From positions 1 to 43,303 of the IMG/VR virus record IMGVR_UViG_3300025635_000039: a stretch of DNA of 43,303 nt; one strand, 5' to 3'. Under the pieces are notes generated by a model. The model saw nothing but the letters and a program-made list of their open reading frames with translations, ran no database searches and was not told where the DNA came from. Of this stretch, positions 2,690-43,303 are shown one piece after another. Both the position numbers and the translations under genes were made by a program. The stretch comes from a virus. Its lineage: Duplodnaviria; Caudoviricetes. Positions within the stretch are counted from its first letter, which is position 1. Each line of letters begins with the position of its first letter.

Positions 2690-2717
2690 TGCGCCCATAT
2701 GTGGGAAGGATGATATC

Positions 2718-2879
2718 ATGGAGCTAAATTGCCCTGTGTGTGGAAGTAACCAGACAAACACCTACCGAATCAAAGGTGGCTACTACCTTGTTGAATGCGT
2801 GAACTGCGACAGAGAGACCACGGTGGATTGTAGTGTAGAAGAACTAGCAGAGCGCATCGACAGACTAACCCACGCATAA
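2718..2879 (+). CDS. 53-aa zinc-ribbon protein (MELNCPVCGS...ECVNCD...)
   Basis: AAGGA RBS; two CxxC motifs; translated by hand. Confidence 0.65.
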   Translation: MELNCPVCGSNQTNTYRIKGGYYLVECVNCDRETTVDCSVEELAERIDRLTHA

Positions 2880-2936
2880 CCCTCTGAAGAGCCGCGTGGC
2901 GAAACCTGGCGGACACCATACCGCTAGGTCAGGGTT
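2878..2936 (+). ncRNA. Type I hammerhead ribozyme, predicted cleavage 3' of C2930
   Basis: AACCCT (stem I) - CTGAAGA - GCC/GCGT/GGC (stem II) - GAAA - CCTGGCGG/ACACCATA/CCGCTAGG (stem III) - TC - AGGGTT (stem I'); full catalytic core with a GUC site. Confidence 0.9.
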
Positions 2937-3014
2937 TTTTCAGGCATACATAGGGGGGATACCGTTTCCCGGTCCCTGTGTGTATCTTTAACTTCAACCA
3001 AGGGGAGGTGTGCC

Positions 3015-3314
3015 ATGCACTCAGCATCTTTGCGACGTAACCCACCACGCACAACCGCAAACACGCGCCGTAACCGTCCGCCATGGTACCTGTGGATGCT
3101 CACGGCGATCTCCTGCGGGGTGTTTGTGGTGGGACTTATCATCCTCGCGCATCGCAAGTTCTTCGTCATTGCGGCCATCATCCTGAGTCTCATGGGGTTA
3201 CCATCGGACGCACTGGCATCGTGCACAACCCACACAGTCTACGGGCCTGATGGTTCAATGCGCGTCTGTCAAACCTGCTGCAACAACGGGTCATGTCAGA
3301 CATTTTGTAGTTAG
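3015..3314 (+). CDS. Membrane/secreted protein with C-terminal Cys-rich mini-domain
   Basis: GGGGAGG RBS; two hydrophobic segments, ALA|S site, then CTTHT...CQTCCNNGSCQTFC. Confidence 0.7.
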   Translation: MHSASLRRNPPRTTANTRRNRPPWYLWMLTAISCGVFVVGLIILAHRKFFVIAAIILSLMGLPSDALASCTTHTVYGPDGSMRVCQTCCNNGSCQTFCS

Positions 3315-3476
3315 CTAACCGGGCGTAACGTGAAGGGTGGGCACACCTTATGATCACTGTTTTTACCGCTAATGTTCCATTGCTAGGAGAGATCTATTTT
3401 GGGTATGATCCTGTGGGTGGAAAGTGTGTGTGGGAATTCACCTCTGCGAAGACACTCGCGGAGATACGGAGGTCAT

Positions 3477-3815
3477 ATGTACAAAGAACTGGGGATACTC
3501 TCGACAGTACTGTCAGCAGTCCGCCTGCTCGACGACAACATCCCCGCGCAGACGCTCAGTGTATTCCTAGCCGTCGCCAAGAATGAGGGCATCGGCATTG
3601 GGGAGCTTGCGACGAAGTGCGGGTTGGCGGATTCATCGGCCTCTCGTAATGTCGCGGCCCTGAGCGATTGGCATTGGCTGAAACGTCCTGGTCTTGGCCT
3701 GGTGGAAGTGCGAAGTGACCGGATGGACGTGTGGAAAAAGACCGTGTGGCTTACACCGAAAGGTAAGAAGCTCGCGGAACAACTTGTCGCGATATTGGGA
3801 GGTGACCATGCCTAA
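3477..3815 (+). CDS. MarR-like winged-helix regulator (candidate repressor)
   Basis: GGAGG RBS; HTH segment IGELATKCGLADSSASRNVAAL and wing ending LTPKGK; directly upstream of integrase, as in temperate T7-like phages such as LUZ100. Confidence 0.8.
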   Translation: MYKELGILSTVLSAVRLLDDNIPAQTLSVFLAVAKNEGIGIGELATKCGLADSSASRNVAALSDWHWLKRPGLGLVEVRSDRMDVWKKTVWLTPKGKKLAEQLVAILGGDHA

Positions 3816-4830
3816 GCGAAACCTTCCTGATGGCATCCGCCAGAGGGGAAACAGTTACTTGATCGACGTGACCATCAAAGGGACACGGCGCACGAAGACC
3901 ATCCCCGCGTTGGATCTCGACCGTGCTATCGCAGAGCAGGCCCAGCTTCGCGCCGACATGCTACGGCAGGTCTCAGTACCGGCGAAAGAGGAGCGCGACA
4001 CCTGGACACTGAGGCAGGCGTATGACAAGTGCGTGGAGTTGTACTGGTCAGACGCAAACAGCGGGGTAAAACTCGCACGTAACGCGGAGATTGCCCTTGA
4101 GCATTTTGGCGAGGCTACACCGCTGGATGTCATCACTGATGAGAAGCTCGATCAATACGCCGCGTACCTCATGGCATCCGGTAACAGTAACGCGACGATC
4201 AACCGCAAGCTCTCCGCCGTGTCACGTATGCTCACCCTCGCGGTGAAACGCGGGAAGCTCGTGCGGAAACCCAGCGTGGAACGCCGCAAGGAGTTCAAGG
4301 GGCGTATCCGGTTTCTCTCCCACATGGAAGAGCAGCAAGTGCTCGGTACCCTGGCATCGTGGGGGAAGGATGAGCACGCAGAGGCGGTCTGTGTCCTGAT
4401 CGATACTGGGATGAGACCCAGCGAACTGTACGCACTGGTCGAGCGGGATCTCGACTTCATGAACGGGATCATTCACGTATGGAAGACCAAGAACAAGGAA
4501 GCTCGGAGCATTCCTATGACACAGCGTGTCAAGGAGATCCTGTGGCGACGGTCTCAGGTCATCATGTCCGGGGCGTTGTTCCCTTACGACAACTTCTGGA
4601 TGGAGCACGTATGGGATCGTGTGAAGGGACACATCGGCCTGGGTGAGGACAAGGAGTTCATACCTTACGCACTCAGGCACACCTGCATCTCCCGGCTGGT
4701 GCAACGCGGGGTACCCCTGAAGGTGGTGATGGAGTGGGCCGGACATAAGAACATCCAGACCACTATGCGGTACGCTCACCTGTGCCCCACGAACCTGATG
4801 GATGCCGTCAAGGTGCTTGAGATTGCGTAA
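3808..4830 (+). CDS. int: Tyrosine recombinase / phage integrase
   Basis: TGMRPSEL (R), KTKN (K), YALRHT, AGH and TTMRYAH (catalytic Y); GGAGG RBS. Confidence 0.93.
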   Translation: MPKRNLPDGIRQRGNSYLIDVTIKGTRRTKTIPALDLDRAIAEQAQLRADMLRQVSVPAKEERDTWTLRQAYDKCVELYWSDANSGVKLARNAEIALEHFGEATPLDVITDEKLDQYAAYLMASGNSNATINRKLSAVSRMLTLAVKRGKLVRKPSVERRKEFKGRIRFLSHMEEQQVLGTLASWGKDEHAEAVCVLIDTGMRPSELYALVERDLDFMNGIIHVWKTKNKEARSIPMTQRVKEILWRRSQVIMSGALFPYDNFWMEHVWDRVKGHIGLGEDKEFIPYALRHTCISRLVQRGVPLKVVMEWAGHKNIQTTMRYAHLCPTNLMDAVKVLEIA

Positions 4831-4916: not shown

Positions 4917-4960
4917 GCCCGAGTGGTGAAATTGGCATACACAAGGGACTTAAAATCCCT
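4917..4960 (+). mobile_element. attP: attP core: 5' half of tRNA-Leu(TAA), not a complete tRNA
   Basis: GCCCGAGTGGTGAAATTGGCATACACAAGGGACTTAAAATCCCT = acceptor 5' strand, D-arm and anticodon stem AGGGA/TCCCT with TAA; no T-arm follows; adjacent to integrase. Confidence 0.88.
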
Positions 4961-5101: not shown

Positions 5102-5124
5102 TATTGGTTGGACCTGTAGTTGGC
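5102..5124 (+). promoter_or_regulatory. Phage RNAP promoter P1 (predicted +1 G5119)
   Basis: TATTGGTTGGACCTGTA-G; core shared by five intergenic sites with T7-like -17/+1 geometry. Confidence 0.75.
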
Positions 5125-5146
5125 CCGAAACATCCACGGAGGGAAT

Positions 5147-7570
5147 ATGAACGACCTATACGCCCGTCAGTGTGAACTTGAAAAAGAGATGCAGGGCCTA
5201 GGGGCCAAGCGGTTTATTGAGCAGATTCAGAAGGCGCGGGAAGGCCACCAGGAGAGTAATACGATCTACGGTATGCAACTTGCCCAGCGGACCATCCTCC
5301 CGATGAGTCAGGCTCTTGAGGAGTGGGTGGCCCAGGTGAATAAGACACGCGGCACTCGCCCCATTGCAGCAAAGTACTTGGCAGACCTCGACCCGAAGGT
5401 GGTGGCGTACATCACTGTCCGGGTAGCTCTCGATTGTATCACCCTGCAACGGTCCCTACAGAAAACCGCTATCGCCGTCGCCTCGGGGTTGGAAGACGAA
5501 GCCCGGTTCACGCACTTCGAGGGAAACGCCAAGGGTCTCTGGCATACCGTCACCACGAAGCTCGACAAAGCCACGAAGCACGCTGGACACAAACGCCGCG
5601 TGCTCATTCATGCGATGAACCGTGCCGCTGAACGCGACAGCAACCTTGAGTGGCAACCGTGGTCGCAAATCGACAAGTACCATGTCGGGGTGCGCTGTCT
5701 GGACCTCTTGGCCGCAGCCACGAAACTGATTCGGATTGTGACCCTCGACCAGGGGAAGCGGACATCATCCACGGTCGTCGAAGCCACCGAGCAAACGCTG
5801 AAATGGATCGAGGAGAAAAACAGCCGGTGCGAACTGCTTGCCCCGGTGTTCCTCCCTACGATCATCCCGCCGAAGCCCTGGCGAAACCCCTACGAGGGGG
5901 GCTACCACACCAAGGCGGTGCGCCCGTTGCGTTTAGTGAAGATACGGAACGAGAATTATCTCGAAGAGTTGTTTCACCGGGTCGATGACATGCCCGTCCT
6001 GTATCAGGCGGTGAACGCAGTACAGGCCACACCCTGGCAGATCAACGGCCAGGTGCTCCGGGTGATGCAGCAGATTTGGGATGCTGGGGCGAACGTGGGG
6101 GAGGTACCTAGCCGGGAAGATGCCCCACTCCCACCGAAGCCGCATGATATTGCCACCAACAAGGAAGCGAGGATTGCATGGAAACGGAAGGCGAGTACGG
6201 TACACACGGCGAACGTGAAACTGAGAAGCCAGCGAATACAGATGGCGAAAATTCTCTACATGGCGGAGAAGTTCAAGGACGAAGCTGCGATTTATTTCCC
6301 CCATCAACTAGATTTCAGAGGCCGTTTATACGCTGTGCCGTCCTTTCTCAATCCGCAGGGGTGCGACATGGCGAAGTCGTTGTTACAGTTTGCAGACGGG
6401 AAGCCTGTGGGAGACCGTGGGAGTCGCTGGTTGATGATCCACGCAGCAAATTGCTGGGGGGAAGATAAGTGCTCCCTTGATGACCGCGTGAAGTGGTCGC
6501 GGGAGAACCTCACGAAGATCGTGGCGGTCTCGCTTGACCCCCTCAGTGAACAGTGGTGGACCGAAGCGGACAAGCCCTGGCAATTTCTCGCGGCGTGCTT
6601 CGAGATCCACGCAGTCATCCTCAACCCGGATTATGTGAGCCATCTTCCGGTCAGTGTCGATGGGAGTTGTAATGGGTTGCAAAACTTCAGTGCCATGCTC
6701 AGAGACGAGATTGGGGGACGTGCGGTTAATCTGCTGCCGTCCAAGTTACCAGCCGACATTTATGCACGAGTGGCGGAAGTGGCAGCGGAGAAAGTTGCCG
6801 TGGATGCACAAGCCGGTGACCCGGTTGCTCTGCAATGGGTATCGTATGGTTTTGATCGAAAGGCCACCAAACGCCCGGTCATGACGCTTCCCTACGGGGC
6901 CACGCAGTACAGCGCACGACAGTACATCAAGGACTACATTGACGAGCGTGGTGACCACCCGTTCGGGGAAGACGCATTCGGTGCCGCGATCTACCTCAGC
7001 AAACACATCTGGTCGAGTATTGGGGAAGTCGTGGTCGCGGCCCGGTCTGCAATGGACTGGCTACAGAAGACCGCACAGATCGCGGCATCCGAGGGTCTCC
7101 CGGTGAACTGGACAACACCAGTCGGGTTCCCGGTGTTGCAGTCCTACGTCAACATGGACAGCCGCACCGTGAAAACCAAGATGGGCGGGGCGATGATCTA
7201 TCACGTCTTGACCGAAGAGACCACGGTGATCGACCGACGCAGGCAATCGAGTGGCATCTCCCCGAACTTCGTGCATTCGATGGATGCAGCAGCATTGATG
7301 CTGTCTGTGCGCCGTGCCCTCGAAGCGGGGATCAGCCACTTCGGGATGGTGCATGACTCCTACGGAACCCTAGCCGCTGACATGGACACCATGGCAGTCT
7401 GTTTGCGGGAGGCGTTTGTCGAGTTGTATCAGCATGACGTACTTGAGGAGTTCCGGGGGTCGATCTTGGCTGGTCTCTCAGAGAAGAAGCAGCGGATGGT
7501 CCCGCCGTGCCCACCGAAGGGCAACTTGGATTTAGCGGCAGTCAAACAAAGTGTGTATTTCTTTGCCTAG
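5147..7570 (+). CDS. T7-like single-subunit DNA-directed RNA polymerase (gp1)
   Basis: DFRGRLY, DGSCNGLQ, RKATKRPVMTLPYG, PNFVHSMDA, HDSY and C-terminal YFFA. Confidence 0.97.
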   Translation: MNDLYARQCELEKEMQGLGAKRFIEQIQKAREGHQESNTIYGMQLAQRTILPMSQALEEWVAQVNKTRGTRPIAAKYLADLDPKVVAYITVRVALDCITLQRSLQKTAIAVASGLEDEARFTHFEGNAKGLWHTVTTKLDKATKHAGHKRRVLIHAMNRAAERDSNLEWQPWSQIDKYHVGVRCLDLLAAATKLIRIVTLDQGKRTSSTVVEATEQTLKWIEEKNSRCELLAPVFLPTIIPPKPWRNPYEGGYHTKAVRPLRLVKIRNENYLEELFHRVDDMPVLYQAVNAVQATPWQINGQVLRVMQQIWDAGANVGEVPSREDAPLPPKPHDIATNKEARIAWKRKASTVHTANVKLRSQRIQMAKILYMAEKFKDEAAIYFPHQLDFRGRLYAVPSFLNPQGCDMAKSLLQFADGKPVGDRGSRWLMIHAANCWGEDKCSLDDRVKWSRENLTKIVAVSLDPLSEQWWTEADKPWQFLAACFEIHAVILNPDYVSHLPVSVDGSCNGLQNFSAMLRDEIGGRAVNLLPSKLPADIYARVAEVAAEKVAVDAQAGDPVALQWVSYGFDRKATKRPVMTLPYGATQYSARQYIKDYIDERGDHPFGEDAFGAAIYLSKHIWSSIGEVVVAARSAMDWLQKTAQIAASEGLPVNWTTPVGFPVLQSYVNMDSRTVKTKMGGAMIYHVLTEETTVIDRRRQSSGISPNFVHSMDAAALMLSVRRALEAGISHFGMVHDSYGTLAADMDTMAVCLREAFVELYQHDVLEEFRGSILAGLSEKKQRMVPPCPPKGNLDLAAVKQSVYFFA

Positions 7571-43159: not shown

Positions 43160-43303
43160 ATGAGAATCGATGCAAACGGTAAGGTATGGGCTACATGGCG
43201 GGAATGGATGAAGATGGGGAAAGAAGATTCAATGCTAGGAAGACCTGAACCACGTTTCCCAAACCAACCCGATTACATGGCGGGATACAACCATAAGAAA
43301 AGA
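43160..43303 (+). CDS. First early ORF (55 aa, MRIDANGKVWATWREW...), continuing across the junction to a stop at 149-151
   Basis: AAGGAG RBS; frame stays open through the terminal repeat. Confidence 0.65.
   Translation, partial: MRIDANGKVWATWREWMKMGKEDSMLGRPEPRFPNQPDYMAGYNHKKR
43178..43303. repeat. Terminal direct repeat, copy 2
   Basis: Identical to 2-127. Confidence 0.93.

Follow-up and report, generated by a model that had tools for sequence, protein, structure and literature searches.

A type I hammerhead ribozyme at an early gene end in an uncultured T7-like phage, with a predicted role in processing of early RNA

The window analyzed here is the whole 43,303-nucleotide stretch of a tailed-phage record, in which about 135 bases at 43169-43303 repeat the window start, which makes the record a circular assembly whose early region starts ahead of position 1. 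Upstream of the polymerase gene lie a small zinc-ribbon ORF, genes for a hydrophobic protein, a 78-aa product, a MarR-like regulator and a tyrosine integrase, and, at the junction of the first two, a hammerhead ribozyme motif (Table 1). As an earlier note on this DNA had proposed, the motif is located at the boundary between variable early genes and a conserved membrane-protein/marR/int block; the 99-aa gene, the 78-aa gene, marR and int are kept as a block in three relatives. Two features were absent from that note, namely the 78-aa ORF between the membrane-protein gene and marR and the overlap of the TAA stop codon of the 53-aa ORF (2877-2879) with the first two bases of stem I.

Table 1. 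Features of the hammerhead locus and its neighboring genes in the window.
Feature	Position	Strand	Basis or remark
53-aa zinc-ribbon ORF, weak Lar-like match	2718..2879	+	PF14354, E 4.6e-5, below curated cut-off
5′ tail complementary to 2894-2899, predicted pseudoknot arm or competing hairpin	2870..2875	+	4-6 bp
Hammerhead stem I, 5′ strand	2878..2883	+	6 Watson-Crick pairs with 2931-2936
Conserved core C3-A9, CUGAAGA	2884..2890	+	sequence reading
Stem II, 3 bp (2891-2893/2898-2900), with 4-nt loop GCGU	2891..2900	+	script
G12-A15 (GAAA, 2901-2904) and stem III with 8-nt loop	2901..2929	+	also flagged as terminator-like hairpin
Predicted cleavage site, after C17 of GUC	2930..2931	+	consensus position
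Stem I 3′ strand (2931-2936) running into six-U tract (2935-2940)	2931..2940	+	sequence reading
14-bp bulged hairpin near 5′ end of predicted downstream product	2946..2983	+	fold prediction
99-aa hydrophobic protein, Cys-rich C-terminus	3015..3314	+	first gene after predicted cut, 84 nt downstream
78-aa ORF, overlapping marR start	3350..3586	+	unannotated; conserved in relatives L084, L004 and L009
MarR-like regulator	3477..3815	+	phrog_9665, E 9e-26; 547 nt after predicted cut
Tyrosine integrase	3808..4830	+	PF00589, E 7e-24; 878 nt from predicted cut
T7-type RNA polymerase	5120..7570	+	profile matches; places phage among T7-like phages

The 99-aa protein has no Pfam or PHROG match and no usable Atlas match. 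Its homologs (L084:6273-6503, L004:20-235 and L085:6244-6480) share an invariant ALA-x-CT motif and five invariant cysteines, and in Nitrospira-type phages the gene is conserved immediately before the marR block; the product may, at a guess, be an exclusion factor or a similar exported peptide with disulfide bonds. Between the integrase and polymerase genes, positions 4917-4960 hold part of a tRNA-Leu(TAA), only its 5′ half as far as the anticodon arm, and several relatives have a whole tRNA-Leu at the corresponding site. The fragment could represent a truncated gene or the core of attP. These 44 nt matched none of five genomes, and among 201 Nitrospirota genomes one matched at 3 mismatches and none exactly, so that no host call can be made from attP. 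A Nitrospira-like host is suggested by homologs in Nitrospira-labelled records, the sole basis for this assignment.

Sequence reading and a script identified the plus-strand element at 2878-2936 as a type I hammerhead with stems of 6, 3 and 9 bp, in which C17 is position 2930 and the nine pairs of stem III (2904-2912/2921-2929) include one G-U. Under the core definition given in the methods of Perreault 2011 (PMC3088659), the core is complete: C3 U4 G5 A6 N7 G8 A9, G12 A13 A14 A15, U16 and H17 are all present, the core-adjacent bases of all three stems are paired, and none of the 18 stem pairs is broken. As stem I is the open one, the motif has type I topology. This is the sole descriptor match for type I on either strand of the window, and likewise the sole match for any of the three topologies. 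Dinucleotide shuffling of the window (1000 shuffles) yielded 13 loose matches, none for stems of 5/3/5 bp and none for the observed 6/3/9 bp. The motif is identical letter for letter in contigs of three other sequencing runs (X2, X3 and X4; X5 ends short).

A covariance model (R1) trained on 31 further phage type I hammerheads, the window motif not among them, gave the motif 33.6 bits (E about 1.5e-6) and the next best window site 12.4 bits, a score that is partly circular and serves as a consistency check, as the core of the window motif underlies the pattern that supplied most of the training loci. The Rfam check suggested in the earlier note went the other way: the whole window at gathering score and positions 2700-3100 at E up to 10 gave no hammerhead match, and the motif falls below the gathering score of every Rfam hammerhead family (clan CL00010). 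This miss says little, because Rfam recovered one of the 11 descriptor hammerheads present in 13 related loci, missing the other 10, and none in 19 further loci. A stem I-specific pattern found no direct homolog of the motif in viral contigs, and blastn of 2840-3000 against phage records gave chance-level partial matches only, so that no homolog supports selection on the exact motif. At the level of sequence, the element is confirmed as a real type I hammerhead, intact as the earlier note had described it, and its Mg2+-dependent cleavage after C17 (2930/2931) is likely, as predicted from the consensus position.

The complementarity of loop II to the 5′ tail, also described earlier, is present and longer than stated, reaching 6 bp (2870-2875/2894-2899) if stem II shrinks and 5 bp with one terminal pair open. 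A 5-bp helix with the 5′ tail was matched by 0.7% of 2000 random 10-mers. Six of 64 fetched type I motifs have a 5′ helix of at least 4 bp, while 16 of the 64 use the 3′ tail instead, and the same register, as a loop I-loop II helix, occurs in seven of 20 fetched type III motifs. Among eight type I motifs with a 3-bp stem II, the window motif is the one with a 5′ helix, and 24 loci with the same stem II length contain no second example, which leaves the helix without covariation support; pair counts on alignment A2 were circular, its rows having been picked for pairing, and were set aside as evidence. The analysis in Perreault 2011 (PMC3088659) predicted a pseudoknot for about 40% of motifs. 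The window motif resembles type I hammerheads with a stem I-loop II pseudoknot in its core and topology, in having a short stem II and in a Watson-Crick arm immediately 5′ of the stem I strand leading into CUGA, but its 5′-tail arm is uncommon among the fetched type I motifs. A loop II/5′ tail pseudoknot of 4-6 bp, a prediction from this one sequence, probably supplies the stem I-stem II contact; the helix may instead be a trap. The pseudoknotted fold is beyond the scoring of ViennaRNA, and in the nested-structure model a competing fold is level with the active fold (-24.1 vs -24.9 kcal/mol), with a stem I pair probability of 0.1-0.35. Because the competing fold is level in energy, cleavage of the window motif could be slow.

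Hundreds of bacterial hammerheads near prophage integrases are reported in Perreault 2011 (PMC3088659). The regulatory context of the window motif had been thought new in the earlier note, which does not hold: section 6 and Fig. S2 of that paper describe tests of hammerheads upstream of marR-tRNA-integrase, where the triple hammerhead of Agrobacterium tumefaciens C58 cleaves in vitro and in E. coli. The arrangement was thus already published with experimental support in 2011, and its authors suggested that processing yields mRNAs the length of an operon or a gene (PMC3088659). A primer from the paper finds one viral contig, L356, which encodes a T7-type polymerase 40% identical to that of the window, a T7 tail fibre, ArdA, MarR (34%) and an integrase (30%), and which carries two type II hammerheads by descriptor and a third core read by eye. 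Like the window, the Agrobacterium prophage-like locus has hammerheads between early genes upstream of marR/integrase, and the distance from the last CUGAUGA core to the marR match is about 450 nt in L356, compared with 547 nt in the window. The Agrobacterium cluster differs in having three motifs, other flanking genes and demonstrated cleavage, whereas the window has one type I motif with predicted cleavage. Among the traits of the published prophage clusters, the window motif has the sense-strand orientation, the intergenic position and the T7-like early region ahead of marR/integrase; as a single motif, it lacks the trait of several ribozymes flanking single genes. According to two reviews (PMC6765202, PMC6155905), the role of bacterial and phage hammerheads is an open question. 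The window locus alone does not move that question, its context having been published in 2011 and the phage being uncultured.

The distribution of hammerheads among relatives was determined on loci collected with an alignment query of 53 integrases, used instead of single-protein searches, which returned 0 loci for the integrase and one distant locus for the polymerase. The query returned 240 loci, of which L164 is the window phage and was dropped from all counts; the remaining 239 form 178 clusters at 95% identity, with L001-L003 outside the cluster counts. Eleven strong hammerheads were found in six of the 178 clusters, at one to three per phage. All 11 are in sense orientation and precede the integrase by 684-3555 nt, with none downstream or antisense; types I, II and III are all present, and the motifs sit between differing early ORFs. 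Among T7-type clusters with at least 1.5 kb of upstream sequence, three of 62 have a hammerhead. Single hammerheads also occur in L040 and L179, and weak descriptor matches with a 2-bp stem II (L073, L128 and L232) were kept outside the strong count. A pattern scan gave 80 viral loci, 59 of them with a full motif. The T7-like early regions of L293, L301/L302, L313 and L319 have three to four hammerheads each, located ahead of marR or int or after terminase. Two are present in L091, the T7-like prophage of Chelatococcus sambhunathii DSM 18167.

Of the relatives with a full early region, L084 (from a record labelled Nitrospira sp. SG-bin2) is the closest, at 71% for the polymerase and 78% for the terminase; its orthologs of the 53-aa (55% identical), 99-aa, 78-aa, marR and int genes follow the order of the window, but it has no hammerhead. 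No hammerhead was found in the closest relatives L084, L085, L006-L009, L014 and L015, nor in any of nine named isolates checked, two as whole genomes (ProddE and LUZ100) and seven in their early regions (Pasto, Lo5R7ANS, BOESR1, DU_RP_I, CRP-114, BB8 and HTVC200P). With six of 178 clusters and varying early-gene junctions, the conserved position in related integrase-encoding phages that the earlier note had raised as a check was not found. Judged by these comparisons, the window hammerhead represents a genuine class whose position is under selection; it is optional, however, and shows no tie to the lysogeny genes.

Among loci that were picked by patterns and the integrase query, that include related and thus non-independent phages, and whose genes were called by a simple rule, an SD-led ORF of at least 40 codons ends between -30 and +7 of C3 in 38 of 62 type I motifs (non-redundant and with enough upstream sequence), as compared with 337 of 5300 random windows. 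The core UGA itself serves as the upstream stop codon in 14 of the 62, vs 111 of 1707 random CTGA sequences, and 20 of 61 type I motifs overlap the end of the upstream gene. For type I, the upstream stop lies at a median distance of 0 nt, compared with 4 nt for type II and 32 nt for type III; with one motif counted per locus and type, a stop lies within 10 nt in 28 of 50 motifs of types I and II and 0 of 17 of type III (Fisher p 2e-5). The loci of this pattern are L244-L341 and L040-L179. Adjacency to stops may partly reflect compact phage genomes, which push intergenic elements towards stop codons. In hammerheads of types I and II, stem III stays with the upstream product, consistent with a role in forming a protected 3′ end. 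Their placement on upstream stops, not seen for type III, suggests 3′-end formation, possibly with translation coupling, as their job. A literature search covering titles and abstract openings, with few subscription papers in scope, found neither the stop-codon pattern nor a lysis/lysogeny role, and the stop-codon placement of phage type I/II hammerheads may be new. It is testable, and it is the part of the finding worth following up.

The favored interpretation, at a probability of roughly 60%, is that the ribozyme acts in constitutive processing at a gene end, cutting a polycistronic early transcript after C2930. The ribozyme would fold behind the terminating ribosome and cut constitutively without stopping transcription. 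The upstream piece would keep stems II and III and a 2′,3′-cyclic phosphate as a protected 3′ end, and the downstream piece (99-aa gene, 78-aa gene, marR and int, if read through) would start with a 5′-OH. Self-processing of early RNA, as put forward in the earlier note, is the likely role; co-transcription with marR-int and the effects on stability are what we infer. The site would be an optional element that phages gain and lose, comparable in function to the RNase III sites of T7, and not a switch.

RNase III sites lie between T7 early genes and cut the transcript made by the host polymerase. The window motif would likewise cut between early genes of a host-polymerase transcript; it differs in that its cut would be RNA-catalyzed, leaving a 5′-OH and a cyclic phosphate, not a 5′-phosphate, and in being a single site. 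RNase E/G, III and Y scored above cut-offs in three of three Nitrospira-labelled genomes; as Nitrospira-like hosts have RNase III, the ribozyme would not be making up for a missing enzyme. The 14-bp hairpin beyond the predicted cut may, on its modelled fold, be a 5′ stabilizer or an RNase III site. A ribozyme replacing an RNase III site was tried as a candidate and rejected, since long hairpins in the window (fold of 2931-3020, z -0.58) and in L084 (z -0.21) were not significant. A 5′-OH end resists the 5′-monophosphate-dependent RNase E/G, and it need not protect RNA where RNase J is present; the downstream piece would thus resist RNase E/G in a host without RNase J. RNase J was above cut-off in 0 of 41 genomes from the genus of the nearest host-like record, whereas RNase J-like genes scoring slightly below cut-off occur in two alphaproteobacteria that host hammerhead-bearing prophages. 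The 5′-OH protection proposed in the earlier note is therefore plausible for the downstream RNA if the host is Nitrospira-like, and need not hold in hosts like the latter two.

Self-cleavage within a bacterial mRNA upstream of a gene is also found in the glmS ribozyme. As described in a review (PMC6765202), glmS is ligand-dependent, associated with one fixed gene, and destabilizes its mRNA, none of which is indicated for the window motif. A conserved position before regulated genes across relatives, as in a glmS-like switch, was not found, and nothing was found to suggest a ligand or signal controlling cleavage in the window.

An alternative that is unlikely, though the best placed of those considered, is a translation-gated ribozyme, in which the 2870-2875/2894-2899 helix traps the core until a ribosome at the overlapping stop codon melts both this helix and stem I. 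Cleavage would then depend on the upstream gene being translated and would come after the ribosome is released. In a transcript ending at 2905, the trap helix is the only fold (pair probability 0.99-1.0), and at several longer transcript lengths its probability is still about 0.5. Its 5′ arm lies inside the last codons of the 53-aa ORF, and the stop adjacency of types I and II, the use of the core UGA as a stop codon and the overlap with upstream gene ends all point in the same direction. However, the same helix can act as an activating pseudoknot, and it is rare among type I motifs with a 3-bp stem II. The T7-like cluster in Perreault 2011 cleaved itself during in vitro transcription without ribosomes, and pseudoknots described there form before the rest of the ribozyme and allow function with a one-pair stem II (PMC3088659). 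An activating role of the 5′ helix is the simpler reading because the published pseudoknots form first and tolerate a one-pair stem II. The general form of this idea, that phage type I/II hammerheads are translation-termination-coupled processing sites, at which the ribosome times or gates cleavage because the stop codon either overlaps stem I or is provided by the core UGA, is quite unlikely. If true, the processed 99-aa gene/marR/int RNA would be tied to translation of the last early gene, a ribosome-gated step feeding the lysogeny module.

The motif may instead combine a terminator and a ribozyme, so that the folded motif and the U-tract behind it end most early transcripts near 2940-2942 and cleavage merely trims the end. 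This dual function is suggested by the terminator-like score of stem III plus its tail, by stem I running straight into six U residues and by the similarly U-rich tail of the L091 type I motif. It is nonetheless decidedly unlikely, as five terminator-like sites in 6 kb compare with 4.8 expected by chance, five bases separate stem III from the U-tract, and only two of 61 type I motifs have at least five T in the next eight bases.

The earlier note had proposed an input to the lysis/lysogeny decision, in which the cut stabilizes the membrane protein/MarR/integrase mRNA and thereby biases the decision. The motif does lie at the 5′ boundary of the conserved block, RNase J is missing above cut-off from all 41 genomes mentioned above, and MarR was proposed to act in this decision in the LUZ100 paper (PMC10134795). 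Against this, the flanking genes are present in the closest relative but the hammerhead is not, the other near relatives and all nine isolates likewise have none, hammerhead position and topology vary among relatives, and the two alphaproteobacterial hosts have RNase J-like genes. In place of a hammerhead, L085 (a Nitrospira chromosome) has an 11/12 sigma70 match, read by eye, before its 99-aa homolog. Like the window, LUZ100 has a marR-integrase operon ahead of the polymerase gene and a tRNA-Leu sequence nearby; it lacks a hammerhead, and a dedicated promoter, P3, drives its marR and integrase together, independently of the remaining early genes (PMC10134795). P3 is located inside the ORF preceding marR, and a 9/12 sigma70-like site, by itself a chance-level match, is found in the same position in the window (3380-3409), inside the 78-aa ORF. 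Sigma70-like sites precede marR in 13 of 43 loci; among 43 stretches inside int, which served as an imperfect control, two have one. It is very unlikely that the motif is an input to the lysis/lysogeny decision.

Least likely of all is an inactive or neutral relic of a mobile hammerhead cassette acquired with an early gene, which would fit the patchy occurrence among T7-type clusters, the competing fold and the inactivity of four of 18 consensus motifs in tests by Perreault 2011 (14 of 18 were active; PMC3088659), but not the intactness of every core base and all 18 stem pairs, the lack of any variant in the three other runs, or the agreement of its placement with the class pattern.

Several observations on other loci were made in passing. 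A third hammerhead-like motif in L097 (5857-5937), with an extra base after A9, was found by the covariance model only. Nine hammerheads in the viral contig L287 and seven in L250 are packed into 5-8 kb, which comes close to one for each gene. Longer conserved RNA frames enclose hammerhead cores with a 3-bp stem II in L327, L328, L330, L331, L334, L336 and L345, and further in L325, L335, L341 and L342 and in L332 and L339. Rfam gave no match on ten of these longer-frame loci, which share flanking motifs and an interrupted stem I with an inserted hairpin; the frames are possibly undescribed larger RNA motifs. Finally, stem III recurs in L091, L097, L179, L250, L293, L301, L313 and L319 in a variant form whose third pair is followed by a conserved internal loop; type I and type II motifs of T7-like early regions share this form.
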